Source: an uncultured Chloroflexia bacterium (GTDB taxonomy: Bacteria > Chloroflexota > Ktedonobacteria > Ktedonobacterales > JADMIN01). From it: 32,000 nucleotides of DNA. The stretch covers positions 570,001 through 602,000 of the forward strand of contig CAVRAI010000015.1 of NCBI GenBank assembly GCA_963718915.1. Direction: 5' to 3'. The translations under genes were made by a program, and so were the position numbers. This document shows positions 15,988 through 32,000 of the stretch, in pieces; the stretch's first letter is position 1; the number at the start of each line of letters is the position of its first letter. The notes under the pieces were generated by a model that saw only the letters and a list, made by a program, of their open reading frames with translations, made no database searches and was not told where the DNA came from.

Positions 15988-16524
15988 TTACAGATAGCAG
16001 GGCGGGCTGCTGCCCCGGCGGCGTAGCTCGTCGCGGGCAATGGCCTCACGCGCCAGGCTCCAGAGCAGTTGGGCGGTAGGCGTGGTCACGGGATAGCCTT
16101 CCTCGTAGAGGAGCCGATGCGCCAGGTCGCGCGTTACGTGTGGGCCGATCAGCGCCACGAAGCTACGATCACGCAGGCCTAGCGCCTCGACGCGCTCCAG
16201 CAGCGCGGTCGCCGCCGCCAGTTCGTGCTCGTCATCGGCGGCCAGCCAGACCAGCACGACCTCGGCATCGGTCTGGACTGCCTGGCGCAATCCTTCTTCA
16301 GTCGTTGGGGCATGCGGCAACACCCGTATCTCCACGATGCTCGTGAAGCGCTCCATCAGCGCCACGATCTCACTGGTATGGGTATCTGCCAATGCCAGCA
16401 GGCATACTGTCATGCGACGGCCAAGCTGCCAGCGGAGCAGCCCATCGATGGCGTTGCGCTCACTCGCAGTGAGTGGCGCTGTCGCTGAGGTATTCGGTGT
16501 ATCTGTATCAGGCGAGTCGTGCAT
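15988..16524 (-). CDS. Hypothetical protein, B12-binding-domain-like (Rossmann-like) fold; start uncertain (16524 or 16581)
   Basis: RMTVCLLALADTHTSEIVALMERF..VEIRVL..EEGLRQAVQTDAEVVLVWLA..LLERVEALGLRDRSFVALIGPHV follows the beta-alpha pattern of cobalamin-binding domains. DTHTSE (16369-16386) sits where DxHxxG would be. Immediately downstream of hemL on the same strand. Confidence 0.45.
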   Translation of the reverse strand: MHDSPDTDTPNTSATAPLTASERNAIDGLLRWQLGRRMTVCLLALADTHTSEIVALMERFTSIVEIRVLPHAPTTEEGLRQAVQTDAEVVLVWLAADDEHELAAATALLERVEALGLRDRSFVALIGPHVTRDLAHRLLYEEGYPVTTPTAQLLWSLAREAIARDELRRRGSSPPCYL

Positions 16525-16675
16525 CAGGCTCCCGCGATTCATCACTATTTGTGCTAGCGGCCTAACGCCAGTATATATCATGCCGTGAGCATGTCATGCT
16601 GATGTGCGCCACTGTGCCATGGTCTGCAGCCCGCGCAGGCGGGCTTCGCGGCCGACAGGCCCATTAGGCGCGGCT

Positions 16676-17988
16676 TCAGCCGCCAGCCGTCTCCGCCAAC
16701 TCCCCCATCGTGGCCGCCGCCTTACTGATCGTGTCAGTGATATCGGCATCGGTGTGAGCGCTGCTCATAAACGCCGCCTCGAACTGGCTGGGCGCGAAGT
16801 AGACGCCCTGATCGAGCATCGAGTGGAAGAAGCGCGCGTATCGCTGGGTATCGGCGTACTGGCGGGCGGTCGCGTAATCAGTGATCGCCGCGCCTGGCTG
16901 TTGAGGAAGTAGAAGCCGAACATCGTGCCCGCCTGCCCGCTCTGTAGCGGTATTCCGGCGGCATCCGCGCTGGCCTGGATGCCGGTGGCAAGTCGAGCCG
17001 TCTGTTCTGCCGCAGCCTCAAAGACACCCGGTTCGAGCCAGGCGTTTAGCGTGGCGAGGCCCGCCGTCATCGCCAGTGGATTGCCGGAGAGCGTCCCTGC
17101 CTGATACATCGGCCCGGCGGGGGCCACCTGTCGCATGATCTCGCGCTTGCCAGCATACGCGCCGACCGGCAGCCCGCCGCCAATCACCTTGCCGAGGCAG
17201 GTGATGTCAGGATCGAGTCCCCAGGCGCCTTGTGCGCCACCGGGCGCAACACGGAAGCCGGTCATGACTTCATCGAGTATGAGGAGCGCGCCACGGTTCC
17301 GACATAACTCCTGGAGCTGCTGTAAGAAGCCCGGCTCAGGCAGGACGAAGCCCATATTCGCCGCGATTGGCTCGACGATGACGGCGGCAATCATGTCTGG
17401 GTAGAGCGCGAACAACTCCTCTATCCCGGCGCGGTCGTTGTATTCCGCCGTCAGCGTGTTGGCGACAGCAGCCGCCGGAACTCCAGGCGAATCGGGCAGT
17501 CCAAGTGTCGCGACACCGCTGCCCGCCTGTACCAGCAGCATATCGGCGTGGCCATGGTAGCAGCCGGCGAACTTCACGATTTTGTCGCGTCCGGTGGCGG
17601 CGCGCGCCAGCCGAAGCGCGCTCATCGTGGCTTCGGTGCCGCTATTGACGAAGCGGACCATCTCAACCGACGGCACGGTGGCGATAATCCGCTCGGCGAG
17701 TTCGCTTTCCAAGGCGGTTGGCGCGCCATAGCTCGTGCCGCGTTGTAGCGCATCCGTCAGCGCGGCGACGACGGCGGGGTGAGCGTGTCCCAGCGCCAGT
17801 GGTCCCCATGAGAGCACGTAGTCCAGATAGCGGTTGCCGTCCACATCGGTCATCCATGCGCCACTGCCTGAAGCGATGAAGCGCGGGGCGCCGCCGACGC
17901 CACGAAACGCGCGCACGGGACTGTTCACGCCGCCGGGGATCACTTGCTGCGCCTCGGCAAAGAGCCGGGCCGATTCGCTGGTATTCAT
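16676..17988 (-). CDS. hemL: Glutamate-1-semialdehyde 2,1-aminomutase (HemL/GsaM), frame-disrupted near 16888-16893 in this sequence
   Basis: The N-terminal 375 aa are classic HemL (PLP Lys in [17 protein letters not shown]; [10 protein letters not shown]). After LNSQ the annotated frame becomes junk ([13 protein letters not shown].., stop 16765). The -1 frame reads [55 protein letters not shown].. to stop 16676-16678. Span is 1313 nt, i.e. 438 codons minus 1 nt. Confidence 0.9.
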
Positions 17989-19478
17989 ACGGGTTGCCTC
18001 CTAGCCACCGTTCGTCTGTTCTTGAGCTTCTCGACGATCTTCGCCGCCGCCAGTTCGCCCTGGTGAATGCAGTCGGGCACGCCTACACCGCGATACGAGC
18101 TACCCGCCACGGCCATGCCTGATGGGAGCGCCTCCTCGATGGCCGCCACGCGCTCCAGATGGCCAACGTCATACTGCGGATAGCCGTCGGGCCAGCGGAA
18201 GATGCGCGTGAAGAGCGGGGCCGCTTGCACGCCCAGGATGTCGGCCAGCTCCTCGCGCACAATTGCGATCAGTCTCGCGTCGTCCAGGCGCAGCATCGCG
18301 CGGGTATGCGGCCCACCGAAGAAGACGCGCACCAGCGCATGCCCAGGCGGCGCGCGGTGGTTCCATTTCGAGGATACCCAGGTGATGCCGTCAATGCGGC
18401 GGCCCTCAGTCGGCGGAATGACGACACCAGTGCCGTTGAGCGGATGGGCGATGTCATCCCGTCGGTAGGCCAGATAGATCGCGCCGATACCCGCATAGCG
18501 GATGCCAGCCAGTAGCGCGGCGGCCTCCGGCGCAATCTCGTGTGTGAGGGTCGCGGAGACGTTGGCGGGCGTGGCGTGAATCACAGCATCGGCGGTCAGC
18601 GACGCGCCATCGTCGAGGTGTATCACGTAGTTTCCATTGTCAGTCGGCGTGATGCTACAGACGGTTGTGTCTAGCCGCAGCGCGCCAGTTAGCCTGGCTA
18701 CGAGCGCATCCACCAATGACTGATTGCCCGCCTCGAATGAGAGAAATGCGGGCGTCTCGGATGGCGGCTGTTGGCGGCTGGCAGCGCGCAATCCGCGGAT
18801 GACGCTGCCGTGCGCGCGTTCGAGCGCCGGAAATTGCGGGAAGGTCGCCAGGATGCTCTGGCGCTCAGGCTCGGCGTTATAGACACCCGCCAGCATCGGC
18901 TCGGCCAGCCGTCGCAGCGCCTCATCGCCGAAGCGCCTGCGCACGAATGTCGCCAGCGATTCGTCGTCAGCCTGTCGTCGTGGTGGCAGCAGCAGATCGA
19001 GGGTGATACGTACTTTGCCCCAGGGCGAGAAGAGCGGCGAGCGCAGAAACGGTAGCCACTGTGTCGGCGCAAGCAGTTGCAGGCCGGCAGGCAGTGGCTC
19101 CGGCTTGCCCCCACGCAGCACGAAGGTGCGGCTGTTCTCGCGGTTGACGAAGAGGAAATGCTCGTCCAGGCGCAGATCACGCGCCAGCGCGAGCGCCCAG
19201 GGCTTGCGCGTCAGCAGCCCATCCGGCCCCGCCTCCAGCACCCAGGCGGGCGCGCCGTCGCGCTCTATCACTTCCGAGCGCACCTTGCCACCCCAGCGGC
19301 TGGATTGCTCGACCAGGGTGTACGTAATTGGCAGGCCGTCACGCGCCGCCGCCTGTTGCAGATGCCACGCCGCGCTCAACCCGGTGATACCGCCACCGAG
19401 AATCACCACATGCGCGTCCAGAGCCTCTGGCTCCCCCTCTCCTCGCGGGAGAGGAGGCCGGGGGGTGAGGTCATCCAT
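17985..19478 (-). CDS. hemY: Coproporphyrinogen III / protoporphyrinogen oxidase (HemY/CgoX), FAD-dependent
   Basis: [17 protein letters not shown] dinucleotide-binding motif, with HemY-like length and C-terminus. ATG 19478 overlaps the hemE stop by 8 nt; an alternative GTG lies at 19409. The stop overlaps the hemL start (ATGA at 17985-17988). Confidence 0.85.
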
Positions 19479-20517
19479 TGCCAGCCGCCGTCTGCTCATG
19501 GACGAAATCCACCAGTCGCTTGACGTTATCGGTCGGTGTCTCTGGCAGGATGCCGTGGCCCAGGTTGAAGATGTGGCCCGCGCGTCCGTCTGCCTGATCC
19601 AGAATCGCCTGCGCGCGCTGCTTGAGCGCATCCCATGGGGCAAGCAGCGCGACCGGATCGAGATTGCCCTGCACCGCCGCATCTTCTCCGAGCCGCTGCC
19701 ACGCCGCGCCCAGGTCGATGCGCCAGTCCACGCTGATGACATCTGCGCCCGTCTCGCGCATTGCCTCCAGGTAGCCGCTGGTATCCGTGGCAAAGTGGAT
19801 GATGGGCACGCCTGCCTCGCGGGCAATCGTGATGGCGCGCTGGGTATAGGGCAGCGCGAACTGGCGATAGTCGCTGGCGGAGAGTTGGCCTGCCCAGCTA
19901 TCGAAGAGTTGCAGCGCCTGCGCCCCGGCACGCGCCTGTGCCAGCAGATACGTCCCAACCACCTCGCTGAGCTTCGTCATCAGTTCATCCCAGGCGGCGG
20001 GCGCGCTCATCATCAGCCCCTTCGCCAGGGCGTAGTTGCGGCTGCCTCTTCCCTCGATGGCATAGGCCGCCAGCGTGAACGGCGCGCCGCTGAAGCCAAT
20101 CAGCGGGATGTTGCGTCCGTCCAACTGTGCGCGCGCCAGCCGGATCGCCTCCAGCGTGAAGGGCAGCGTCTCCTCAGGCGGGTGTACCCGCAGCCGCGTG
20201 ATGTCGTCCACCGTCCGCACTGGATTGCCAATCACTGGCCCCTCACCCTCGGCGAAACGCAGGTGCAACCCCATCCCTTCGAGCGGCGGCAGGATATCGG
20301 CGAAGATGATGGCGGCGTCGAGGTCGAACGTTTCGATGGGTTGGAGCGTCACCTCGCAGGCCAGCTCGGGCGTCTTGATGATCGTCAGTAGCGGATGATG
20401 CTCCCGCACCTTACGATATGCGGGCATGTAACGCCCCGCCTGGCGCATCAGCCAGATCGGCGTCGCATCGGTTGGTTCGCGGCGGCAGGCCTTCAGAAAG
20501 CGGCTCTCGGCGGTCAT
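19471..20517 (-). CDS. hemE: Uroporphyrinogen decarboxylase (HemE/UroD)
   Basis: N-terminal FLKACRREPTDATPIWLMRQAGRYMPAYR signature, 348 aa. Directly abuts the hemB stop. Confidence 0.95.
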   Translation of the reverse strand: MTAESRFLKACRREPTDATPIWLMRQAGRYMPAYRKVREHHPLLTIIKTPELACEVTLQPIETFDLDAAIIFADILPPLEGMGLHLRFAEGEGPVIGNPVRTVDDITRLRVHPPEETLPFTLEAIRLARAQLDGRNIPLIGFSGAPFTLAAYAIEGRGSRNYALAKGLMMSAPAAWDELMTKLSEVVGTYLLAQARAGAQALQLFDSWAGQLSASDYRQFALPYTQRAITIAREAGVPIIHFATDTSGYLEAMRETGADVISVDWRIDLGAAWQRLGEDAAVQGNLDPVALLAPWDALKQRAQAILDQADGRAGHIFNLGHGILPETPTDNVKRLVDFVHEQTAAGNG

Positions 20518-21585
20518 CTATTCGGCTCCATCCAGCCAGCGTGCGGCGTCTTTGGCGAAGTAGGTCAGGATCATATCGGCCCCGGCTCTTTTGATGCTGA
20601 CGAGGCTTTCCAGCGCGCATCGCTTCAGGTCGAGCCAGCCGTTGGCCGCCGCCGCGTGGAGCATCGCGTATTCGCCGCTCACCTGATACGCCGCGACTGG
20701 CAGCGAGAATGACTGGCGCACCTCGCTCAGCACGTCCAGATAAGGCAGCGCGGGCTTGACCATCAGCATGTCTGCCCCCTCGGCGACATCCATCGCCACC
20801 TCGCGTAGCGCCTCGCGCCGGTTGGCGGGATCCATCTGATACTGGCTGCGGTCGCCAAAGGCTGGCGGACTCTCCGCCGCGTCGCGGAATGGGCCATAGA
20901 AGCCGCTGGCATACTTGGCGGCGTAGCTGAGAATGGCGACGTGATCGAGTCTGTGTTCGTCTAGCGCGGCGCGAATCGCCCCCACCATGCCATCCATCAT
21001 GCCCGATGGCGCGATGATATCTGCCCCTGCCTCGGCATGCGCCACCGACGCGCGACCCAGCAGTTCGAGTGTCAGGTCGTTCAGCACGTAACCCTCAGGC
21101 AGCCGATTGGTATAGTGGCTGGCGCCCGGCGTGTTGATGATGCCGCAGTGGCCGTGGTCGGTATACTCGCAGAAGCACATGTCGGAGATAACGACCATCT
21201 CTGGTGTGACCTCTTTGATGGCGCGAATCGCCCGCGGCACGATGCCATCGGCGGCGTAGTTTTCGCTGCCCGTCGCGTCTTTGCTTGCTGGAATGCCAAA
21301 AAGCACGACCGCCGGAATGCCCAGCGCGGCGATCTCGCGCGCCTCGTCGCGCAGCCGATCCACCGACCATTGAGACTGGCCCGGCATAGATGCTATTGGT
21401 TGCCTGATGTTCTCGCCATGGCGCACGAACAGCGGATAGATAAAGTCCGATGGACTGAGCGTCGTCTCGCGTACCATCCGGCGCATCGTCTCGCTTAGAC
21501 GCAGCCGACGCGGGCGGGCGACCGGGAAGCCCGCCGATGTCTCGGCGGTCTGTTGCGGACTTGTCCGCCTTCGGGAAGTCACCAT
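20518..21585 (-). CDS. hemB: Porphobilinogen synthase (HemB/PbgS), Zn-type
   Basis: [18 protein letters not shown], Cys-rich metal site [14 protein letters not shown], Schiff-base Lys region [19 protein letters not shown] upstream. Confidence 0.95.
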
Positions 21586-21714
21586 CGCGTTATCCGCTCC
21601 TTATCGTCGTTTGTTGGCGTAGGTTGTCTGTGTGTCAATGCTGGCAGCCGAAGCCATCTTGTTATTTCGTGAGGATGTGGGCGCTGAATGGCAAAATTCG
21701 TCTGGTTGTGCGCT

Positions 21715-21817
21715 CGCCGTAGGCTGAAGACCTACGGCTAATCCCGCCGCGGGCGCGGTCACCTGCCCTTATACACGGCGTTGCGCTTCGGGATTAGCCG
21801 CGGCATTCATGTCGCGG
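21715..21817. repeat. Second composite REP/MITE-like element, splitting the heme cluster between hemD and hemB
   Basis: Left arm 21715-21744 is CGCCGTAGGCTGAAGACCTACGGCTAATCC. Degenerate inverted right arm 21791-21817 is GGATTAGCCGCGGCATTCATGTCGCGG. Confidence 0.7.
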
Positions 21818-21894
21818 ACGGTCGCCACACTGCGTCACGTGCCATCCAGGCGCATTCCTCCGATTGCGATAACCGACCATGTGCTCTCTTGTGA

Positions 21895-22683
21895 TTATCC
21901 CGCTTGCCCGAAATATGGAACAAGCGCCTGCACCAGCCCGGTCAGTGTGTGCTCTGATGCTACTACTGTCGCCCGCAGGCCCAGCGCCTCAACTGCCTGC
22001 GCGGTGCTGGGGCCGATGCATGCGAGGCAGACACTCTGTAGCGTCTGCACGTCGCCATCCTCCAATTGTAGTCGCCGCACCAGATTGTTTGCCGTCGAGC
22101 CACTCGTCAACGTGATAGCGTCCACCGCGCCCCTGGCGAGCAGCGTGGGCAGATCAACACCGCCGCGGCTCATCCCCGGCTGATACGCGACGACTGCCGC
22201 GACGCGCGCGCCACGTTTTGCCATCGCCCGCGCCATCTCGTTGTTATCGAGAGCGGAGTGTGGCAGCAGAATCGTTGCGCCCGTGATGTCTGGAAAAGCC
22301 GCCACCATATCCAGCGCACTGTAGCTATTCTCCGGGATCATCTCGACACGCAGCCCCAGCGCTTCTTCAGTCGCCCGCGCCGTAGATGGGCCGACGGCGG
22401 CCACCCGCAGCCCCGCCAGCGCGCCCGATGGCATTCCAAGCGCTGCCACCCGCTGCGCCACGGCATCCACAGCATTGGCGCTGGTTAAGGCTAGCCAGTC
22501 ATACTGGCCCGCCACCGCCGCCCGGAGCGCGTCATCCAGCGGACCGAGATGGTCGGGCGGCGCAATCGCCAGGCAGGGATAGCGGTAGACCGTCGCGCCC
22601 TCCGCCTGGAGCAGCGATTCGAGCGCCGCCGCCTGGTGTTCGGCCCGCGTGACGATCACCACCCTGCCCGCCAGCGCGCTCAT
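21895..22683 (-). CDS. hemD: Uroporphyrinogen-III synthase (HemD/UroS)
   Basis: LAGRVVIVTRAEHQAAALESLLQAEGATVYRYPCLAIAPP with a two-lobed repeat layout, 262 aa. ATGA overlap with the hemC stop (22680-22683). Confidence 0.8.
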   Translation of the reverse strand: MSALAGRVVIVTRAEHQAAALESLLQAEGATVYRYPCLAIAPPDHLGPLDDALRAAVAGQYDWLALTSANAVDAVAQRVAALGMPSGALAGLRVAAVGPSTARATEEALGLRVEMIPENSYSALDMVAAFPDITGATILLPHSALDNNEMARAMAKRGARVAAVVAYQPGMSRGGVDLPTLLARGAVDAITLTSGSTANNLVRRLQLEDGDVQTLQSVCLACIGPSTAQAVEALGLRATVVASEHTLTGLVQALVPYFGQAG

Positions 22684-23627
22684 GACTCGTCCTCCAGCAG
22701 TTCGTCGGCATGCTGCGCCAGCGCCATCTCCGCCAGCCGCTGGCCAAGGGTTGCCGCGCCTTTGGGAGAAGCGGATCCTTCGAGCGTGACATCCACTTGA
22801 CGCGAGCCATCCGGCGCAGTGACACGACCGCGTAACACAAGTCGCCGATTCCTGATCTCGGCGTAGGCCGCGACCGGCGTCGCGCAGCCGCCACCGAGCG
22901 CCGCCAGAAACGCGCGCTCCGCCGTGACCGCCAGCAGCGTTGGGCGGTGGATGATGGGCGCGAGTAATGCCCGTGAGGCCGCCTCGTCACGGCATTGCAC
23001 CGCAAGCGCGCCCTGACCCGGCGCGGGCAACATCTCATCCAGCGATAGATCCTGGCTGATTTCCCCCGCTCGCTTCAGACGGTCAAGTCCCGCCATTGCC
23101 AGCACAATGGCGTCATATGGGCCATCCGCCGCCAGCGCCTTGCGCATCCGTGTATCGACGTTACCGCGGATATCGAGCAGGCGCAGGTCGGGCCGCCGCA
23201 CGAGCAATTGCGCCGCGCGCCGTCGGCTGCTCGTGCCGACTGTCGCGTGTGCGGGCAATGAGTCCAGCGTGTGGTTCGCTCGACTGATGAGCGCGTCGTG
23301 CGCGTTGCCGCGCTGTGGGATCGCGCCGATGATGAGTCCCTCGCTGTTGTCGGTGGGCAGGTCTTTCAGACTGTGGACGGCGAGATCAATCGCGCCATTG
23401 CGGAGAGCCGCCTCCAGTTCGGCGGTGAAGACGCCCTTGCCGCCAATCTGCGGCAGCGGCGAGTCCAGTGTGATGTCGCCCTGTGTCTTCATCACCTCAA
23501 TGCTGACAGCGAGCGACGGCCAGGCCTGCCGCAACAGGTCGCGAACGTGGTGCGCCTGCCAGAGCGCCAGCGCCGAGCCGCGCGTGCCAATGCGCACCGC
23601 ATCCATCGGACTTATCAGGCTAGTCAT
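22680..23627 (-). CDS. hemC: Hydroxymethylbilane synthase / porphobilinogen deaminase (HemC/HmbS)
   Basis: VRIGTRGSALALWQAHHV, and the cofactor Cys in LGGGCATPVAAYAE. Start is ATG 23627 (overlaps the hemA stop) or ATG 23606. Confidence 0.9.
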   Translation of the reverse strand: MTSLISPMDAVRIGTRGSALALWQAHHVRDLLRQAWPSLAVSIEVMKTQGDITLDSPLPQIGGKGVFTAELEAALRNGAIDLAVHSLKDLPTDNSEGLIIGAIPQRGNAHDALISRANHTLDSLPAHATVGTSSRRRAAQLLVRRPDLRLLDIRGNVDTRMRKALAADGPYDAIVLAMAGLDRLKRAGEISQDLSLDEMLPAPGQGALAVQCRDEAASRALLAPIIHRPTLLAVTAERAFLAALGGGCATPVAAYAEIRNRRLVLRGRVTAPDGSRQVDVTLEGSASPKGAATLGQRLAEMALAQHADELLEDES

Positions 23628-24936
23628 CGTCAGAGTCCGTTTCAGTGTCTGGCTCAGCCTCAGCTGGCGCATCGAGGGCGAACATTTTGCGGATGGCATG
23701 CTCGTAGTCGAAGTGATCGCCATGGGCTGCCCGCCACTTCAGGTTGACTGTAGGCGTGTGCAGCAGCTTGTTGACGATGCGTTGCGCCATCTGCGCCACC
23801 ACGTCGCGCTCGTGTTGATCCAGGTCGGGCAGGCGATTCAGCGCGTGTTCAAGCTCCGCCTCGGCAATGGTGTCGGCCCGGCCTCGTAGCTCGGTCAAGA
23901 CAGGAACGATGCGGCGACTCCTGAGCCAGTTGACGTATGTCACCGCCTCGCCTTCGATAATCCCCTCGACGGACGTCACCTCAGCCTCACGCAATATCCG
24001 GTGTTGCGCGACCACCGCCTGCAAGTCGTCGATATCATGCAGGCGAATCGCGGGCGCCAGGTCTGCCGCAGGCGCGATGTTGCGCGGGACGCCGATATCC
24101 ACCAGCAACAGCGGTCTCGCCACAAAGTCGCGCGCGCTCGTGGCGATCTCGTCCGTGCGCAGAATCGGCTGGCGCGCGCTGGTCGCTGTGATGACGGCGT
24201 CGGCGCTGGCAATCGCCCGCCGCAACTCCCCCCACGGGCGAGCCTGGATGCCTAGCTGATTAGCGAGGGCTTGAGCGCGATCAGCGCTGCGGTTGATGAC
24301 GGTGAGTGTGCTGCCGGTGTCGGCGGCGTGCTGCGCCAGCGCTCCCACCGCCAGGGTTGCCATCTCGCCCGCGCCCACCACAACGATATGCGGACGCTCC
24401 ATGTTCGCCGTCTCGCGCTGAACGAGTTGGGCGGCGGCGTGGCTGATCGAGAGGGTGTGCTGGCTGATGGCCGTCTCGGTGCGGGCGCGTTTGCCGGTGT
24501 GCAGCGAGGCGGTATAGAGACGGTTGAGCAGCGCGCCGCTCGTACGCGCTTGTCGCGCCTGGTCGAGCGCCTCGGTAAGCTGGCGCATGATTTGTGTCTC
24601 GCCCAGCACCAGCGATTCCAGCCCGGCGGCGACGCGGAAGAGATGGCGTACCGCATCAGCATCATCCTTGCGATAGAGCGAATCGAGCAAGGGACGCATC
24701 GGGATGCTTTCGGCGTTGAGCAGGCAATCGACAATCGCATCCTGGGCAAGTGTCAGATCGTCGCAGGTGGCGAAGACTTCATAGCGGTTGCAGGTGGAGA
24801 GAACCACCAGCTCGTCCAGCAGCCCATGTCGCAGCGACGCCAGCAGTGGTAGCAGGTGCGTGTCATCCGCCTGGAGCCGCTCGCGCAACTCCAGCGGTGC
24901 TGTGCGGTAGTCTAATCCGACAAGAATAAGCCTCAT
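23620..24936 (-). CDS. hemA: Glutamyl-tRNA reductase (HemA/GtrR)
   Basis: MRLILVGLDYRTAPLELRERL, active-site VLSTCNRYEVF, NADPH site VVVGAGEMA. Acidic C-terminal tail. Confidence 0.9.
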   Translation of the reverse strand: MRLILVGLDYRTAPLELRERLQADDTHLLPLLASLRHGLLDELVVLSTCNRYEVFATCDDLTLAQDAIVDCLLNAESIPMRPLLDSLYRKDDADAVRHLFRVAAGLESLVLGETQIMRQLTEALDQARQARTSGALLNRLYTASLHTGKRARTETAISQHTLSISHAAAQLVQRETANMERPHIVVVGAGEMATLAVGALAQHAADTGSTLTVINRSADRAQALANQLGIQARPWGELRRAIASADAVITATSARQPILRTDEIATSARDFVARPLLLVDIGVPRNIAPAADLAPAIRLHDIDDLQAVVAQHRILREAEVTSVEGIIEGEAVTYVNWLRSRRIVPVLTELRGRADTIAEAELEHALNRLPDLDQHERDVVAQMAQRIVNKLLHTPTVNLKWRAAHGDHFDYEHAIRKMFALDAPAEAEPDTETDSDDD

Positions 24937-24973
24937 ATGTACTTCATTCATCTCATTGTGCCGCAATCATCAT

Positions 24974-26047
24974 TCATTCGTGTTTCGCCGTCTCATGTCT
25001 TCCGGTCGCAATGCCGCCACAACAATCGATTCCGCACGTATCGGGGCTGGCTCCCTCCGAACCGAGAAATCGGCGCTCCGTTCCCGGCTGGATACGCTCG
25101 ACGATGAGTTGACGGATCATATCGACAAATGCCGGATGTGTCCCCGCCGTCTGCGCGCGCGCCATCGTTATCCCCAACTCATCCGCCAGTTGCCGCGCCT
25201 CCGCATCGAGATCATAGAGTACCTCAACATGATCGGACAGAAAGCCAATCGGCGCAACCACGACAGTCTCTTCGCCTTCATCTTTCAGTACGCGCAGGGT
25301 ATCGCAGATGTCTGGCTCCAGCCATGGTTGCGACGGCGAGCCGCTCCGGCTCTGGTACGCCAACTGCCATCGGGCACCAAGTCCCAACTCTGCGGCGATA
25401 AGCCGCCCCGTCTCGCGCAACTGGTCGACGTAGCGGCTGTTTCGCGCCATGCTCAGCGGAATGCTGTGCGCTGTGAAGACGACTTCGACGTCCGACTGTC
25501 GCGGCTTGGGAATCGTCGCCATCGCCGCGCGCACCCGGTCGGCGTTGGCGCGGATGAAGTCGGGATGGTTGTAGAACTTGCGCAGTGCGCTCACCACTGG
25601 CGCGTCAGGCCCAACCTCGTGTTGCGCGCGCTCGATATCTTCGAGATACTGGCGACAGCCCGAATACGAACTATAGGCCGATGTGATGTATGCCAGCGCG
25701 TGCCGTCTGCCGTCGCGCGCCATCTCGCGCAGGGTATCGGGCAGTAGCGGGCGCCAGTTGCGGTTGCCCCAGTAGATCGGCAGGTTGATGCCATGCGCGT
25801 CGAGCGATTGGCGCAGCGCCGCGATCAGGTCGCGGTTTTGCTGGTTGATCGGGCTGACCCCGCCGAATAGTTCGTAGTGATGCGCCACCGCCAGCATACG
25901 CTCACGCGGCACATTACGCCCGCGCAAGACGTTTTCCAGAAAGGGCATCACATCGTCCATGCCCTCGGGGCCGCCAAACGCGACGACCAGAATCGCATCG
26001 TAGGGCGCAGATATCGCGCTGACGTCCGTGGCAGCGTACTCTGTCAT
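24974..26047 (-). CDS. hemH: Ferrochelatase (HemH; coproporphyrin ferrochelatase CpfC by context)
   Basis: ILVVAFGGPEG, FTAHSIPLS (catalytic His), FLSDHVEVLYDLD. C-terminal Cys cluster DTCGIDCCGG. Confidence 0.9.
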   Translation of the reverse strand: MTEYAATDVSAISAPYDAILVVAFGGPEGMDDVMPFLENVLRGRNVPRERMLAVAHHYELFGGVSPINQQNRDLIAALRQSLDAHGINLPIYWGNRNWRPLLPDTLREMARDGRRHALAYITSAYSSYSGCRQYLEDIERAQHEVGPDAPVVSALRKFYNHPDFIRANADRVRAAMATIPKPRQSDVEVVFTAHSIPLSMARNSRYVDQLRETGRLIAAELGLGARWQLAYQSRSGSPSQPWLEPDICDTLRVLKDEGEETVVVAPIGFLSDHVEVLYDLDAEARQLADELGITMARAQTAGTHPAFVDMIRQLIVERIQPGTERRFLGSEGASPDTCGIDCCGGIATGRHETAKHE

Positions 26048-26050
26048 AGC

Positions 26051-27208
26051 TTACCTGCTCACCTCGCTGGGCGGCTTTGTGCCGACATAGACGACGCCAT
26101 CGCGCACCTCGACCTGATAGGTCGGCACCGGAGCGCTGGCGACGCCATCCACGACCTTGCCCGTCTCCAGATCGTACTGGGCAAAGTGCCAGGGGCAGGT
26201 GACGATGCACGCGCCGTCGCCGATGGATAGCTCGCCCTCGCTCAGCGGCCCGCGCGCGTGGGAGCAGCGGTTGCCGATGGCGTAGAAACGTCCGCCCGCG
26301 TGGAAGAGCGCCACCTGCTGGCCGTTGAGATAGACCACCCGCGTCGTGCCCTCGGCAATATCCTCGACGGGCGCGACATCTATCCACGCCTCGACGTACT
26401 TCTCGGCCTGGCGCGGCTTCGCGATCTTTGGCCCGCCCAGCGCATCAAGCGTCTCCGCCAGCGTCATGCGAATGCAGCTATAGAGCGGCGTATCGCGCAG
26501 GGTATACATGCTGGACTCAGTATCACGTAGTTCCTGCACCAGATCGAGGAAGTCGGAGGGTTCATCGGTCTCGAAGGCAACCACGAATTCCTGGTCGTCC
26601 AGCCCGAACGAGTAGGTGGTATTCAGCTTGACCGCCGGATATTTGCGGCCAATGCGGATGTGCTCATCCATAACCGCCTGACGCTCTTCCATCGGAAGGC
26701 GATACCAGGGCCGTGTCTTGACGAATGGGTAGACGAAGAGATATTTGGCGTCGCTGGGCGAGATGACCAGCCGCTCGGCATCCTCGTCGGGGTTGTCGCG
26801 AATCTCGTAGATCGAGCGTTTGGTCTGCGAGAGATACGACGAACCCAGGCGCAGGTAGCCGCCGATAGTGGTTGAGAGAATCGCCGTCGCCAGCTCCTGG
26901 ATTGGTTCGAGCGATTCGGCGACCTGCCAGAGCAGCAGTTCGGCGTCGGCGCGGGTGCCCATCAGGCTATATGGCCGCATCAACATCTGGCGATGAAACG
27001 ACTCAATCGTCTCGACCAGTTCCAGCTTCTGCTGCTTCTGGCGCTCGGCGGGCAGACGTCGCCACTGTGGGTCGATGGTGTAGAAGGCGAAACGAACGTA
27101 CTGGCGCTTCGTCGGCTTCGGATGCGCGGCGGGCTTTGGCGCGGCGGCAGGCGCGCTTTGTGATCGTTGAGGCCGCTGGGTTCGTTGGGTGGTGATATTC
27201 TGGGCCAT
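26051..27208 (-). CDS. hemQ: Chlorite-dismutase-family coproheme decarboxylase (HemQ/ChdC) fused to a C-terminal Rieske [2Fe-2S] domain
   Basis: HemQ part: YVRFAFYTIDPQW, YLFVYPFVKTRPWYRLPMEERQAVMDEHIRIG, TYSFGLDDQEFVVAFETDEPSDFLDLV. The last ~116 aa (26054-26401) are NirD-like Rieske: CSH (26258-26266) and CPWH (26186-26197). One continuous frame. Confidence 0.85.
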   Translation of the reverse strand: MAQNITTQRTQRPQRSQSAPAAAPKPAAHPKPTKRQYVRFAFYTIDPQWRRLPAERQKQQKLELVETIESFHRQMLMRPYSLMGTRADAELLLWQVAESLEPIQELATAILSTTIGGYLRLGSSYLSQTKRSIYEIRDNPDEDAERLVISPSDAKYLFVYPFVKTRPWYRLPMEERQAVMDEHIRIGRKYPAVKLNTTYSFGLDDQEFVVAFETDEPSDFLDLVQELRDTESSMYTLRDTPLYSCIRMTLAETLDALGGPKIAKPRQAEKYVEAWIDVAPVEDIAEGTTRVVYLNGQQVALFHAGGRFYAIGNRCSHARGPLSEGELSIGDGACIVTCPWHFAQYDLETGKVVDGVASAPVPTYQVEVRDGVVYVGTKPPSEVSR

Positions 27209-27341
27209 TGGCTATCTTTTCACGTTAACGCACAGGTTAAGCAAAATCACTTACACTATACCGGAACAGGCAAGACTACGCTAGTGGCGGCCAGAGTGGC
27301 TATGGATGGCGCGGGAGGGCTAGATTACTCTGGGGCAACCA

Positions 27342-27371
27342 CGCCGCAGGCTGAAGCCCTGCGGCTAATCC
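27342..27371 (+). repeat. Solo REP-like hairpin arm
   Basis: CGCCGCAGGCTGAAGCCCTGCGGCTAATCC, lying between the hemQ start and the FHA gene stop. Confidence 0.8.
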
Positions 27372-27380
27372 TTAATCATG

Positions 27381-28040
27381 TTAGAAGCCGCCGAAGACAA
27401 ATAATGTCTGCCCAATCTTAATTTCGTCTTCTTCGTCCAGTACATGCTGACTGATTCGCTGGTCATTGACTATTGTGCCATTGGCGCTGTTCTCGTCGTG
27501 CAACAGATAGCGGCCATTGGGCTGCCGGTTGATGGTGGCGTGTATGCGTGAGACCTGCAAGTCATCAAGGAAGACGTCGCTCTCGCGGCTGCGCCCGATG
27601 GTGATGCGGTCTTTGCGCAGGTCGTAGGAGCGCCCCTGTTCTTTGCCCTCTCTGACCACCAGCTTCGGCTTGCCCCGATTGGACGTCGGCCGCAAGACGT
27701 AGGTGCTTTGGTTGTCGGCATAGGCAGCATTGCCAAAGCCCTTCCAGCTATCGTACGCGCCCGCAGGGGCAGGCGCACCCCAATCCTGATTGGGCGGAGT
27801 CGGCCTGGCGGGTGGATTGTTCCAGTCATTGCCTGCAGCAGGAGCGCTCGTTCCGTCAGCATCATTCAGGGCGCCAACTCGACAGCGGGAGTGCCCCACC
27901 CGGCGGCCGCCTGCGCGGCTGGCGGGCTGCCCCACTGTGGCTGCTGCCCTATGGTATCTGGCGGGCCGCCCCACTGGGGAACAGACCCCTGCTGGTCGCC
28001 CCACCCCCGGCTTGGTGACGGAGGCTGGTCTTCTTCCCAT
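27381..28040 (-). CDS. FHA-domain protein (ORF as it stands; only about 27381-27875 is homologous to the FHA paralog, the N-terminal ~55 codons look out-of-frame)
   Basis: FHA core RITIGRSRESDVFLDDLQVSRIHATINRQPNGRYLLHDENSANGTIVNDQRI. Colinear with the 31006-32000 paralog from AAGNDWNNPP onward. The N-terminal MGRRPASVTKPGVGRPAG.. is Arg-rich junk overlapping the other two frames. Confidence 0.75.
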   Translation of the reverse strand: MGRRPASVTKPGVGRPAGVCSPVGRPARYHRAAATVGQPASRAGGRRVGHSRCRVGALNDADGTSAPAAGNDWNNPPARPTPPNQDWGAPAPAGAYDSWKGFGNAAYADNQSTYVLRPTSNRGKPKLVVREGKEQGRSYDLRKDRITIGRSRESDVFLDDLQVSRIHATINRQPNGRYLLHDENSANGTIVNDQRISQHVLDEEDEIKIGQTLFVFGGF

Positions 28041-28057
28041 TCGTCATCCAATTCCAT
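27866..28057 (-). other. WG-rich linker segment in a third frame (fragment of the disrupted TIR/FHA locus)
   Basis: ELDDEWEEDQPPSPSRGWGDQQGSVPQWGGPPDTIGQQPQWGSPPAAQAAAGWG aligns with GWGEQQGTVPQWGGPPDSMGQQPQWSGQPAAPAPAGWG of the downstream paralog. The underlying DNA (27903-27979 vs 31582-31658) aligns without gaps. Confidence 0.65.
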
Positions 28058-28653
28058 TCGTCATCCAATTCGTCATCCAATTCGTCATCCAATTCGTCAT
28101 CCAATTCGTCATCCAATTCGTCATCCAATTCGTCATCCAATTCGTCATCCAAGTCCTGCTCATCCCAATCAGATTCGATTATTCCGCTTCCTCCACTATC
28201 GGCCTTAGAAGGCGCAAGTGCGGAGTGAGCTACTAAGTTACCGGCTATTTCACCTTGCCGCATTAACCGTTGACGTAATTGTTGCAGACCATGATATTCG
28301 TCAACCTGCATATCTATATATTGTAGCTCCACCAGCAGCATCGGGATCCGCTCTACTTGGTGCAGCAAGACAGGAATAATGGGCTTACCCAATTGTTGCG
28401 AAAAGAACAACTCCCTTCTCACCCAGGGCGAGGCCACAGCCTCGGGCGAGAGGCCAACCACAACGACATCGCTCGTTTGAATAGCGAGCTCGATCTGTGC
28501 CACCCACTTGTCGCCACCCTCCAGATGCGCACGATCAACCCAGGTGCGAAAGCCATAGCTAATCAGTTTCGCCTCCAGTCGATCTATGGTCGTGCTATCG
28601 GCGCGGGCGTAGCTGATGAAGACGCTGATTGGCTGATTCACAGGTGCCACCAT
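27949..28653 (-). CDS. TIR-domain protein with C-terminal (DDEL)8 acidic repeat (ORF as it stands)
   Basis: ISVFISYARADS, GGDKWVAQIELAI, VVVVGLSPEAVASPWVRRELFF (conserved Glu at 28411-28413), GKPIIPVLL: a TIR_2-type layout. SD GGAG upstream of ATG 28653. The tail after DDEW (NWMTNGKKTSLRHQ..) looks like frame run-on. Confidence 0.8.
   Translation of the reverse strand: MVAPVNQPISVFISYARADSTTIDRLEAKLISYGFRTWVDRAHLEGGDKWVAQIELAIQTSDVVVVGLSPEAVASPWVRRELFFSQQLGKPIIPVLLHQVERIPMLLVELQYIDMQVDEYHGLQQLRQRLMRQGEIAGNLVAHSALAPSKADSGGSGIIESDWDEQDLDDELDDELDDELDDELDDELDDELDDELDDEWNWMTNGKKTSLRHQAGGGATSRGLFPSGAARQIP
28040..28152. repeat. Tandem 12-nt repeat TTCGTCATCCAA (minus strand: LDDE), 8 perfect copies, then a 5-nt partial unit and a ninth copy
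   Basis: Units at 28057, 28069, 28081, 28093, 28105, 28117, 28129 and 28141. Orphan TTCCA at 28052-28056. Extra unit at 28040-28051. Confidence 0.95.
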
Positions 28654-29721: not shown

Positions 29722-30969
29722 TCACCCAAGTGAGTTGCCACACTTGGTGCAGAAGCGGACTCCTGCCGCATTGCGTGTGCCGCAGCGGCTGCAAGCGCGC
29801 CCGACAACTCCGGTGAGCAGGGAATTGCCGCAGGTGGTGCAGAAGCGGTCGATGGCGCGATTGGGCTGGTGACAGTTGGGGCACGTCACCCACGACTCCG
29901 GGTTACCAGTGGCTGGAGCGGGCTTGCGCGGAACGGAAACCGAGCCAGTGCCCAGGGGTGCGCCACAGGTCGTGCAGAAGCGCTGCTGTGGGGCATTGGG
30001 CGCGCCACACTTCGCGCACGTGACCATCGAGGCAGGCCCGCGCCCGCCAGTGACACGTGGCGCCGGGACGGGAAGCGGCTTCTGGGAGTCCATCGCCTCC
30101 GAGAGCGCCAGCGCCATGTCGGTCGCCTGCTGGAAGCGTTCGGAGGGGTCTTTTTCGAGCGCCTTCATCACGACCGCCTGCACCGCTGGCGAGACGCGCG
30201 GATTACGGGTGGAGGGTAGCGGCGCTGGCTCGTAGATATGCGAGTGCGCCAGCGCGGTGTAGTTGTCGGCCTCGAAGGGGGTATGGCTCGTCAGCATCTC
30301 GTAGAGCATCACGCCGAGCGCATAGATATCGCTGCGCGCGTCCACCATCGCGCCGCGACACTGCTCCGGCGACATGTATTCCGGCGTGCCGACGCCCGCG
30401 CCGGTATGTGTGATGACATTCGAGCTGGCGATCATCTTCGCGATGCCGAAGTCGCTAAGGACGACACGGCGGCTGGCCGTTTCCTTGCCGTTGCCATCCA
30501 CCCGTCGCTGGGTATCCATCAACACATTCACCGGCTTGACATCACGATGGACGATGCCCTGCGCATGCGCATATGAGAGCGCGGAGGCCAGGTCGTGGAT
30601 GATGGGCGGAATATCGGCGAAGGTGAACGGGCGGCTCTCCATGTAATCTTTCAGATTGCCACCAGCGATATATTCCATCGTAATGAACAGGTGGCCCAGT
30701 TCGCGGCCAGCATCATGCACCACGAGGATATTGGGGTGCGTGAGCCGCGCCATCGCCCGCGACTCGATTTTGAAGCGCTCGACGAAGGCAGGATCGGCGG
30801 CATAGTAGGGTGGCAGCACCTTCACAGCGACACGACGGTCGAGGTGCGCCTGATAGGCGCGATAGACCCGGGCCATGCCGCCCTGGCCTATCAACTCCTC
30901 GATCACACAATGGCCGAGCGTCTTGCCAATCAGTTCGTCAACGCCCTGGTCATCAACCTGTTCTGCCAC
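29722..30969 (-). CDS. Hanks-type Ser/Thr protein kinase with three C-terminal zinc-ribbon repeats
   Basis: GQGGMARVY, VAVKVL, HRDVKPVN, SDFGIAK, GTPEYMSPEQ. The C-terminus (29725-30030) has three repeats: CAKCG..FCTTCG, CPNCH..FCTTCG, CSRCG..FCTKCG. No TM segment seen. Confidence 0.9.
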   Translation of the reverse strand: MAEQVDDQGVDELIGKTLGHCVIEELIGQGGMARVYRAYQAHLDRRVAVKVLPPYYAADPAFVERFKIESRAMARLTHPNILVVHDAGRELGHLFITMEYIAGGNLKDYMESRPFTFADIPPIIHDLASALSYAHAQGIVHRDVKPVNVLMDTQRRVDGNGKETASRRVVLSDFGIAKMIASSNVITHTGAGVGTPEYMSPEQCRGAMVDARSDIYALGVMLYEMLTSHTPFEADNYTALAHSHIYEPAPLPSTRNPRVSPAVQAVVMKALEKDPSERFQQATDMALALSEAMDSQKPLPVPAPRVTGGRGPASMVTCAKCGAPNAPQQRFCTTCGAPLGTGSVSVPRKPAPATGNPESWVTCPNCHQPNRAIDRFCTTCGNSLLTGVVGRACSRCGTRNAAGVRFCTKCGNSLG

Positions 30970-31005: not shown

Positions 31006-32000
31006 CTAGCGGTAGACGAAGACCAGCAACGTCTGGCCCACCTGGATCTTGTCGCCGTCCTCCAGCATGTGCTCGGAGACGCGCTGGCCATTGACGAGCG
31101 TGCCGTTCGCGCTCTGCTCGTCACGCAGCAGATAGCGGCCATTCTGCTGCCGGTTGATCGTCGTGTGGGTGCGCGAGACGGCCAGGTCTTCGAGGAAGAC
31201 ATCGCTCTCGCGGCTGCGCCCGATGGTGATGCGGTCTTTGCGCACGTCGTAGGAGCGGCCCTGTTCTTTGCCTTCCTGCACGACCAGTTTCGGCTCGCCC
31301 TGCCCCGTCTGTGGCCGCACGACATAGGTGCGCTGGTCCTCGGTGTAGGCGCCATTGCCATAGCCCTGCTGACCGCTGTACGCGCCAGCTGGAGCAGCGG
31401 CGCCCCAATCCTGACTGGGAGCAGTCGGGCTGGCGGGCGGATTGTTCCAGTTGGGGGCGCCCTGCGGCGCGGGCTGATCCCAGGCCTGTTGTGGCGCGGG
31501 CTGCTGGTTCCACCCCTGTTGCGGGTCTGGTGGACGTTGATTCCAGTCGCTGCCCGCGGCGGGAGCGCCCCCGCCCCACCCGGCAGGCGCCGGTGCGGCT
31601 GGCTGACCGCTCCATTGTGGCTGCTGGCCCATACTATCTGGCGGGCCGCCCCACTGGGGAACGGTACCCTGCTGCTCGCCCCATCCCTGGCCTGATGGTG
31701 GTCCCCATCCGCCTGGAGCGCTACCACGTCCAGCGTTCGCCGCGGCTGGCGCGCCCTGATTCCCGTAGGATGCCCAGTCGCTAGAGGCGGCCGGTCCGGC
31801 ATTCGGACGGCTCGCGGGGCCACTGTAGTCCTCGCCCCAGCCGCCGCCTGGACGCGAACGGCCGGGCTGGCTCACAGGCGCGCGCGACTGGCCGTATGGC
31901 CCCTGATTCGCATCGTAGCCAATGCCGCGCGATGTCTTTTTCGCGTCACCATTGCTGCGCAGCACCATCACGAACACCAGAAGGATCGCGATGATGACGA
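31006..32000 (-). CDS. FHA-domain protein with N-terminal TM anchor and long W/G/Q/P-rich linker, 5'-partial (runs off the right edge)
   Basis: The frame stays open to nt 32000 (..VIIAILLVFVMVLRSNGD = TM helix). FHA core RITIGRSRESDVFLEDLAVSRTHTTINRQQNGRYLLRDEQSANGTLVNGQRV. Stop is 36 nt upstream of the kinase start. Confidence 0.85.
   Translation of the reverse strand, partial: VIIAILLVFVMVLRSNGDAKKTSRGIGYDANQGPYGQSRAPVSQPGRSRPGGGWGEDYSGPASRPNAGPAASSDWASYGNQGAPAAANAGRGSAPGGWGPPSGQGWGEQQGTVPQWGGPPDSMGQQPQWSGQPAAPAPAGWGGGAPAAGSDWNQRPPDPQQGWNQQPAPQQAWDQPAPQGAPNWNNPPASPTAPSQDWGAAAPAGAYSGQQGYGNGAYTEDQRTYVVRPQTGQGEPKLVVQEGKEQGRSYDVRKDRITIGRSRESDVFLEDLAVSRTHTTINRQQNGRYLLRDEQSANGTLVNGQRVSEHMLEDGDKIQVGQTLLVFVYR

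Follow-up and report, generated by a model that had tools for sequence, protein, structure and literature searches.

The stretch analysed here, referred to as the window, comprises 32,000 nucleotides from an uncultured Chloroflexia bacterium (contig CAVRAI010000015.1, positions 570,001 to 602,000), and one gene on its minus strand (26051..27208) encodes a protein in which a coproheme decarboxylase (ChdC) domain is followed by a Rieske [2Fe-2S] domain. This ChdC-Rieske fusion very probably acts as a heme synthase. It was only in 2015 that ChdC was recognised as the coproporphyrin pathway's terminal heme synthase, and neither of the known ChdC fusions (CpfC-ChdC and ChdC-ABM) adds an iron-sulfur centre. 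Here the Rieske domain is permanently fused to the C-terminus of ChdC via a short, conserved and probably ordered linker. The finding is a known enzyme in a conserved variant form that bears an unexplained redox domain; the identity of the protein is well supported, and its mechanism is one that we infer. The reading that we favour, and consider possible if not quite probable from the sequences at hand, is that a genuine ChdC would receive single electrons at its coproheme iron from a Rieske cluster of the low-potential type, which would enable it to use O2.

Two domains in one open reading frame

The first-pass annotation had described the gene as a single uninterrupted open reading frame (ORF), and its 385 codons indeed run from an ATG start without any internal stop. 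A ChdC-type and a Rieske domain had also been proposed to lie within it, and Pfam matches to both were found far above the respective cutoffs. Chlor_dismutase (PF06778) covers residues 62-247 (E 6.2e-57; 192.8 bits against a cutoff of 25), while Rieske_2 (PF13806; 70.1 bits against 27) and Rieske (PF00355; 68 bits against 20.3) both cover residues 275-375, each with an E-value of ~1e-19. The features of the gene, all on the minus strand, are as follows; pLDDT is the predicted local distance difference test score.

26051..27208, minus: complete ChdC-Rieske fusion gene, 385 aa, ATG start, TAA stop; an identical protein is in the database (P0001)
27107..27208, minus: N-terminal tail, residues 1-34, variable and of low complexity (pLDDT <50 for residues 1-30)
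26441..27106, minus: coproheme decarboxylase (chlorite-dismutase-fold) domain, residues 35-256, matching PF06778 and ChdC structures in the PDB
26741..26827, minus: inter-subdomain loop, residues 128-156, acidic and, by alignment, without the actinobacterial distal His118
26729..26731, minus: Tyr160 in the YPFVK motif, aligned with catalytic Tyr135 of the Corynebacterium diphtheriae ChdC; invariant (85/85)
26717-26719, minus: Lys164 in the YPFVK motif, aligned with the Lys/Arg that binds propionate 4 (p4); invariant (85/85)
26660..26662, minus: His183 in the MDEHI motif, proximal heme-iron ligand by alignment to the Streptomyces coelicolor and C. diphtheriae ChdCs; invariant (85/85)
26387..26440, minus: linker, residues 257-274, opening with an LDALGGPxxA motif, with conserved residues and high pLDDT
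26078..26386, minus: Rieske [2Fe-2S] ferredoxin-type domain, residues 275-377, matching PF13806, PF00355 and dioxygenase ferredoxins in the PDB
26258..26266, minus: Rieske box I, C315-S-H317; C and H invariant (85/85), box present in 73/73 loci
26186..26197, minus: Rieske box II, C338-P-W-H341; ligands invariant (85/85), box present in 73/73 loci

The coordinates given earlier for the CSH and CPWH motifs are correct. Checked against the sequence, YLFVYPFVKTRPWY corresponds to residues 156-169 of the fusion protein and GGPKIAKPRQAEKYVEAW to the linker segment at residues 258-275. Residue conservation and regional identities were computed on an alignment of 85 fusion sequences, in which mean pairwise identity is 80% for the ChdC domain, 66% for the Rieske domain, 51% for the linker and 25% for the N-terminal tail. 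The difference between the Rieske domain and the tail indicates that the former is under purifying selection. An AlphaFold2 model of the fusion built from the same 85 sequences reached a mean pLDDT of 81 and a predicted template modelling score (pTM) of 0.74. Searched with Foldseek, the PDB yielded no chain spanning both domains, the best alignments covering ~230-240 columns with a query-normalised template modelling score (TM-score) of at most 0.48.

Conservation and distribution of the fusion

In a search of 5.8 billion proteins, all of the 120 best matches (65-100% identical) carried both Pfam domains, and the named members among them came almost entirely from Chloroflexota (Ktedonobacterales, Anaerolineae). 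Scanning one genome for each GTDB species gave 524 relatives, and the locus analyses reported below cover the best 80 of these, with flanks as retrieved. In these 80 loci the match runs to query residue ~375-385, so that these relatives too are fusions. About 67 of them belong to Chloroflexota (Ktedonobacterales, Anaerolineae, Aggregatilineales, Caldilineaceae, Phototrophicaceae and Chloroflexia) and 8 to Armatimonadota, and the remaining 5 are single odd bins, possibly mis-binned; the top locus (L001, 93% identity) is a Ktedonobacterales metagenome-assembled genome, which makes it probable that the window also stems from this order. From the loci, 73 ORFs were extracted by motif anchors, and both the CxH...CxxH signature of the Rieske domain and the YPxxK motif of ChdC were intact in every one. 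Clustering at 50% left few representatives (P0122, P0123, P0125 and the 736-aa P0124), and the nearest unfused ChdCs are 45-48% identical. A further protein of 573 aa, P0126, at first listed as ChdC plus an unknown part, was set aside, as its Arg/Ala/Gly-rich C-terminal half has no domain match and is probably a frameshifted read-through.

It could be argued that the gene is an assembly artefact joining two genes, or that its N-terminal half is a chlorite dismutase (Cld) or another peroxidase, an alternative that we regard as extremely improbable in either form. An artefact of assembly, including a stop or frameshift at 26390-26440, was excluded, because the read-through is kept in at least 80 independently assembled genomes and in 120/120 top clusters. 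The other form of the argument draws on the automated NCBI label, 'chlorite dismutase family protein' (the JGI label reads 'chlorite dismutase/nitrite reductase/ring-hydroxylating ferredoxin subunit'), and on scores that lie under the ChdC equivalog cutoffs of NCBIfam, at 128.1 against 235 bits for NF042928 (HemQ_actino) and 83.1 against 253 bits for NF008913.

The ChdC domain

The chlorite-dismutase (dimeric alpha+beta barrel) fold was recovered by Foldseek with a probability of 1.00 to both ChdC and Cld structures. The nearest solved structures are the ChdCs of S. coelicolor (9miq/9mhq; E 3.5e-27) and C. diphtheriae (6xub; E 1e-20), and the Nitrospira Cld ranks after the ChdC structures (E ~1e-19 to 1e-20). 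We take the essential catalytic Arg of Clds to lie 13 residues past the proximal His (NdCld/DaCld numbering). At that position the fusions have an Asn (Asn196, 84/85), flanked by K194 and L195, which argues that the protein is not a Cld. The catalytic Tyr of ChdC lies beside propionate 2, where Clds have an Ile (PMC7611857). With Asn196 at the expected place of the distal Arg, a Tyr in place of the Ile and a strict operon context, a Cld identity was rejected.

The ChdC half keeps the parts for the known chemistry: His183 as the proximal ligand, Tyr160 near propionate 2 as the radical-forming residue, and Lys164 for propionate 4. The basic residue that binds p4 is Lys in Firmicutes and Arg in Actinobacteria (PMC7611857). 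As the equivalog scores fall short, ChdC membership is a prediction that rests on these residues and on genomic context. [quoted passage not shown]

On the distal side, His118 of the C. diphtheriae enzyme pairs with D143 or D138 of the fusion, depending on gap placement, and any His within the loop of residues 128-156 occurs in only 7/85 sequences. Acidic residues are common there (D138 in 82/85, E142 in 74/85, D143 in 65/85 and E145 in 74/85), and the loop position of the actinobacterial distal His is the catalytic Asp site in DyPs (PMC7611857). An Asp or Glu acting as the distal base is thus conceivable.

The Rieske domain and the linker

A complete set of Rieske ligands had been claimed for the C-terminal half, and C315, H317, C338 and H341 are all invariant in the 85 sequences. 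The boxes read CSHARGPLSEG and C-x-V-x-CPWH, and AlphaFold2 modelled this part as an all-beta domain with high pLDDT. On these motifs, the domain in all likelihood binds a cluster.

The best matches of the domain are CarAc (1vck, 6e-13), 5bok, the NDO ferredoxin (2qpz), HcaC and NirD-type domains, all of them below equivalog cutoffs. The domain had been called NirD-like, a label that holds at the level of the fold; however, dioxygenase ferredoxin subunits match at least equally well, the NirD model TIGR02378 gave 69.4 against a cutoff of 74.65, and NirB is absent from the window and from the 80 loci. The disulfide cysteines of the bc1/b6f type (CTHLGC / CPCHGS) are absent from both Rieske boxes, which suggests a low-potential, donor-type cluster. 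The mononuclear-iron catalytic domain of Rieske non-heme iron oxygenases is likewise absent, as the protein stops at residue 385, 8 residues past the Rieske domain.

An extra cysteine, Cys334 (26207-26209), lies four residues before CPWH and is invariant in the 85-sequence alignment. Neither L019, one of the 80 loci, nor either of the distant fusions P0124 and P0125 has it, and it is probably not a ligand. Armatimonadota members have an additional Cys in box I (PLCEG).

Across the junction of the two domains D255, G258 and G259 are invariant, A263 is found in 84/85 sequences, and L254 and W275 are also conserved. Over residues 251-280 the AlphaFold2 model has a pLDDT of 86-95. The conserved LDALGGPxxA motif and W275, together with the modelled order of the linker, suggest that the docking geometry of the Rieske domain on ChdC is fixed.

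The heme operon

The gene had been placed first in an operon, 3 nt from hemH, and this was confirmed, with its TAA ending at 26051 and the ATG of hemH at 26047. The order hemH-hemA-hemC-hemD downstream also agrees with the earlier description, and the same strand continues through hemB, hemE, hemY and hemL, the genes being tightly packed or overlapping.

24974..26047, minus: hemH, coproporphyrin ferrochelatase (CpfC), with C131/C338/C342/C343 (NF000689, 451.7 bits, above cutoff)
23620..24966, minus: hemA, glutamyl-tRNA reductase
22680..23723, minus: hemC, porphobilinogen deaminase
21895..22683, minus: hemD, uroporphyrinogen-III synthase
20518..21585, minus: hemB, 5-aminolevulinate (ALA) dehydratase
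19471..20517, minus: hemE, uroporphyrinogen decarboxylase
17985..19478, minus: hemY/CgoX, O2-dependent coproporphyrinogen oxidase of the amine-oxidase family, start probably ATG 19478
16765..17988, minus: hemL, glutamate-1-semialdehyde aminomutase (class-III aminotransferase)

Together the genes form a complete coproporphyrin-dependent (CPD) heme operon, in which the fusion gene is the sole candidate for the final enzyme. No reductase, AhbD or further heme gene was found in the rest of the window, and promoter and terminator counts over 16400-27500 equal the shuffled expectation. The mechanical ORF for hemY (17985-19958, minus) spans 657 aa from a TTG start and overlaps hemE by ~490 nt; CgoX homology begins at its residue 184, so that the true start is probably ATG 19478 or 19499.

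The FHA and TIR genes found upstream of the operon are unrelated to it. The start of an FHA-domain protein (27381-28040, minus) is overlapped by a TIR-domain protein (27949-28653, minus) whose long tail is an acidic (DELD)n repeat. Nearby are another FHA protein (31006-31977) and a Ser/Thr kinase (29722-30969) that has repeated CxxC motifs resembling zinc ribbons. Together these TIR, FHA and kinase genes could be a signalling or defence cluster.

Conserved neighbours and the oxygen-independent alternative

The gene directly after the fusion is hemH in 74/80 loci, and further downstream, within the retrieved flanks, hemA was found in 53, hemC in 47, hemD in 43, hemB in 43 and hemE in 39 of the 80. 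The recurring clusters in these loci comprise heme genes, an AhbD-like gene and shadow ORFs only. The AhbD-like gene, of the radical-SAM/SPASM type, is present in 24/80 loci and scores 454.6 bits against a cutoff of 500 with TIGR04545 (heme b synthase). Where examined, it lies between hemH and hemA, as in the following examples.

L043, 8361-9473: AhbD-like gene between hemH and hemA
L055, 8327-9442: AhbD-like gene between hemH and hemA
L070, 8295-9413: AhbD-like gene between hemH and hemA

Both an oxygen-independent coproheme decarboxylase and ChdC-Rieske are thus encoded in these 24 operons, which favours an aerobic role for the fusion. The same observation bears on a different proposal, that the Rieske cluster would be the electron acceptor for oxidative decarboxylation, so that ChdC could turn over without O2 or H2O2. 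ChdC can use flavin mononucleotide (FMN) instead of H2O2 and may work anaerobically (2026 review), and many of the hosts are Anaerolineae, a class generally known to be rich in anaerobes. However, the known mechanism requires Compound I to form the Tyr radical (PMC7611857). By general redox chemistry, a Rieske cluster would be far too weak an oxidant for this, and the domain lacks a bc1-type disulfide and belongs to the low-potential ferredoxin type. Moreover, AhbD already covers anaerobic conversion in those 24 operons, and the O2-dependent CgoX shares the operon. As a Rieske cluster could not generate the Tyr radical and anaerobiosis is already provided for, we consider an acceptor role improbable.

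The CpfC encoded beside the fusion has features of its own. C131, C338, C342 and C343 are invariant in 68/68 adjacent ferrochelatases, with a C-terminal motif HD[VI]CPxxCC, and their layout is the one-internal-plus-three-C-terminal pattern of [2Fe-2S] ferrochelatases. A survey rates CX3CC groupings as incomplete, the fourth Cys being lacking (PMC8529089), whereas here a fourth invariant Cys is present. Two consecutive heme enzymes, CpfC and ChdC-Rieske, may therefore both carry 2Fe-2S clusters.

Such a pairing would suit a non-catalytic Rieske domain, either a sensor of iron, Fe-S, O2 or redox state or a docking or electron-exchange module for the neighbouring CpfC, which we regard as an unlikely but serious alternative. 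Besides the four invariant cysteines and the regular position of hemH after the fusion, a CpfC-ChdC interaction and a natural fusion of the two are known (2026 review), and other CPD bacteria regulate their heme synthesis in response to iron and oxidative stress (review). In contrast, the domain resembles electron-shuttling ferredoxins rather than known sensors, and Rieske clusters are generally not regarded as typical sensory clusters. P0124 also counts against this alternative, as it ties the module to a siroheme decarboxylase, ferrochelatase being absent from its short 4.1-kb contig.

Contexts of distant fusions and unfused relatives

In P0124 (736 aa; L081 1867-4077), ChdC and Rieske are joined to a tandem siroheme decarboxylase of the AhbA/B-like kind, making a triple fusion. 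The last part consists of a NirDL helix-turn-helix (HTH) and an AsnC_trans_reg2 domain, twice, and the protein is known only from 4 short contigs. It hints at a hybrid route in which ChdC-Rieske finishes a siroheme-dependent pathway. A siroheme decarboxylase gene is also adjacent to ChdC in two contexts of unfused relatives (L082 and L083/84).

As a Rosetta-stone check, a separate Rieske gene was sought beside the nearest unfused ChdCs, and none was found in the contexts examined. Directly upstream of ChdC, in four contexts that otherwise differ (the triple fusion and three of the nearest unfused ChdCs), there are aldo-keto reductase orthologues (L081 713-1726, L082 3928-4944, L083 174-1223 and L085 2504-3511), the four being 47-59% identical to one another. 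No orthologue of this aldo-keto reductase was found in any of the 80 fusion loci or in the window; for the ChdCs of the sister clade, it may serve as a partner linked to NAD(P)H.

Two links between DUF1802 and ChdC were noted: in P0236 (397 aa) it is fused to the C-terminus of a ChdC, and in L081 (43-630) its gene lies upstream of the triple fusion, two genes away. Another ChdC relative, P0128 (330 aa), has an N-terminal PCP_red domain (protochlorophyllide reductase 57-kDa subunit small domain). Its sequence stops exactly at the linker motif (...LLGG), so that a contig end may have cut it short and a Rieske domain could follow.

A possible role for the Rieske cluster in oxygen activation

In vivo, the oxidant of ChdC is unsettled, as the first-pass annotation had stated, reviews calling H2O2 only 'most probably' the oxidant. 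The suggestion made there of a built-in redox partner or O2-dependent chemistry is a hypothesis compatible with the ferredoxin-type domain, the missing distal base and the co-occurrence of AhbD.

In the mechanism that we favour, the Rieske cluster would be reduced by a general cellular (housekeeping) reductase encoded outside the operon, and would pass electrons one at a time to the coproheme iron, either in its own subunit or in an adjacent one of the expected pentamer. O2 would bind to the ferrous coproheme, and a further electron and protons would lead through a ferric-hydroperoxo species to Compound I, so that the oxidant would be made in place from O2 without dependence on free H2O2. Compound I would then oxidise Tyr160, which would abstract the propionate beta-hydrogen, with loss of CO2 and formation of the vinyl group. 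The cycle would be repeated on the second propionate, giving the two sequential decarboxylations already established for ChdC. This logic would match that of the Rieske oxygenases, except that the heme iron of the substrate would stand in for the mononuclear iron. As CpfC delivers ferrous coproheme, one additional electron might be enough for the first cycle, a requirement that would suit a one-electron carrier.

Oxygen activation is favoured because the distal His is missing, so that the oxidant would need to be activated; according to reviews, the reaction with H2O2 is poor in ChdCs that lack a distal base. An electron-donor role is favoured because the best Rieske matches are electron-donating dioxygenase ferredoxins. 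We also count in its favour that the Rieske module is fused to a siroheme decarboxylase in P0124, a second link to heme.

Three points weigh against oxygen activation. CgoX, which makes H2O2, shares the operon, and peroxide is thus not obviously lacking. The acidic loop could provide the distal base for conventional H2O2 chemistry, and O2 would then not need to be activated. Finally, among clustered ORFs of >=90 aa in the 80 loci, no conserved reductase or other non-heme neighbour was found.

The same three points would suit an ordinary H2O2-dependent ChdC in which the Rieske cluster is a protective or tuning one-electron reservoir, CgoX supplying the H2O2, the acidic loop at the DyP catalytic Asp site activating it, and no dedicated reductase being conserved nearby. 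Such a reservoir would quench stray Compound I/II or tyrosyl radicals that arise with a mispositioned substrate, or hold the iron in its correct redox state, and would thereby reduce bleaching or cross-linking; in vitro, excess H2O2 damages or cross-links the product (PMC7611857). However, a reservoir would still require re-reduction by some partner, most ChdCs manage without a Rieske domain, and the strict conservation of domain and linker in two phyla suggests a core catalytic role. We judge a protective or tuning function of this kind to be unlikely, though worth keeping in view.

In its strongest form, the oxygen-activating reading would make ChdC-Rieske the heme-based equivalent of a Rieske oxygenase, a heme synthase that activates O2 self-sufficiently and needs no free H2O2. 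This form is speculative, and we consider it less likely than not.

Relation to known systems

The actinobacterial ChdCs (9miq/9mhq; 6xub/6xuc) share with the fusion the fold, the proximal His, the catalytic Tyr in YPF and the role, beside CpfC, of the enzyme that completes the CPD pathway. They differ in sequence (~27% identity), in the distal His118, which an acidic loop replaces in the fusion, in an Arg as the p4 ligand, where the fusion has the Firmicute-like Lys, and in having no extra Rieske domain. The Firmicute ChdCs (Listeria monocytogenes 5loq; Geobacillus 1t0t/5t2k) resemble the fusion in lacking the distal His and in the Lys partner of p4, and the same reaction is expected; they are, however, more distant (E ~1e-12 to 1e-15), have Gln at the distal position in contrast to Asn196, and carry no Rieske domain.

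PitA of Haloferax volcanii is, like the fusion, a ChdC with a C-terminal accessory domain joined by a linker. In contrast to the Rieske domain, that accessory domain is a heme-binding ABM fold without iron-sulfur, and the protein is archaeal and tied to the siroheme route. A genetic study in Haloferax found PitA to be required for aerobic and AhbD for anaerobic growth, an aerobic-anaerobic split that would parallel the operons encoding both ChdC-Rieske and AhbD. AhbD itself, a radical-SAM heme b synthase, carries out the same overall conversion of coproheme to heme with an unrelated fold and oxygen-independent chemistry. The natural CpfC-ChdC (HemH-HemQ) fusion of Cutibacterium acnes first pointed to the role of ChdC in heme synthesis (2026 review); it joins two consecutive pathway enzymes without an added redox cofactor domain.

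For the Rieske half, the dioxygenase ferredoxins (CarAc 1vck, NDO 2qpz, BphF 1fqt, HcaC) and the NirD-like Rieske_2 proteins have the same fold, the same CxH...CxxH signature, ~100 residues and no bc1 disulfide. Those proteins work with non-heme-iron oxygenases or nitrite reductase as free shuttles or subunits, whereas here the domain is attached covalently to an enzyme whose substrate is a heme. The Rieske non-heme iron oxygenases offer a functional analogy only, in that their cluster feeds single electrons to an O2-activating iron, as proposed here.

The fusion had been thought to be uncharacterised, and no mention of it was found in the literature searched, in which few subscription-only papers were covered, nor is there a PDB entry over both domains. 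Neither the 2026 heme-biosynthesis review nor the 2020 review of the fold mentions a Rieske domain on ChdC, and nothing relevant to a Chloroflexi ChdC fusion or to ChdC chemistry with O2 plus reductant was found in that literature, which was mostly open-access.

Implications for heme synthesis

The current annotation of these proteins as chlorite dismutase family members is misleading. The fusion works like a Rosetta stone, in that it indicates that ChdC operates together with a redox partner in two phyla, Chloroflexota and Armatimonadota, which have received little attention in heme research so far. It also offers an experimentally tractable protein for the question of where ChdC obtains its oxidising or reducing equivalents in vivo, and for comparing O2 plus reductant with H2O2. 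If the cluster does not drive catalysis, this would still be the first iron-sulfur-containing ChdC, paired with a probable [2Fe-2S] ferrochelatase. If the cluster does drive catalysis, the textbook stoichiometry would change, and missing partners would be implied for the medically relevant Firmicute and actinobacterial ChdCs. Should the oxygen-activating reading be true, it suggests that unfused ChdCs may use a separate electron donor in vivo, for which the aldo-keto reductase of the sister clade is a possible hint.

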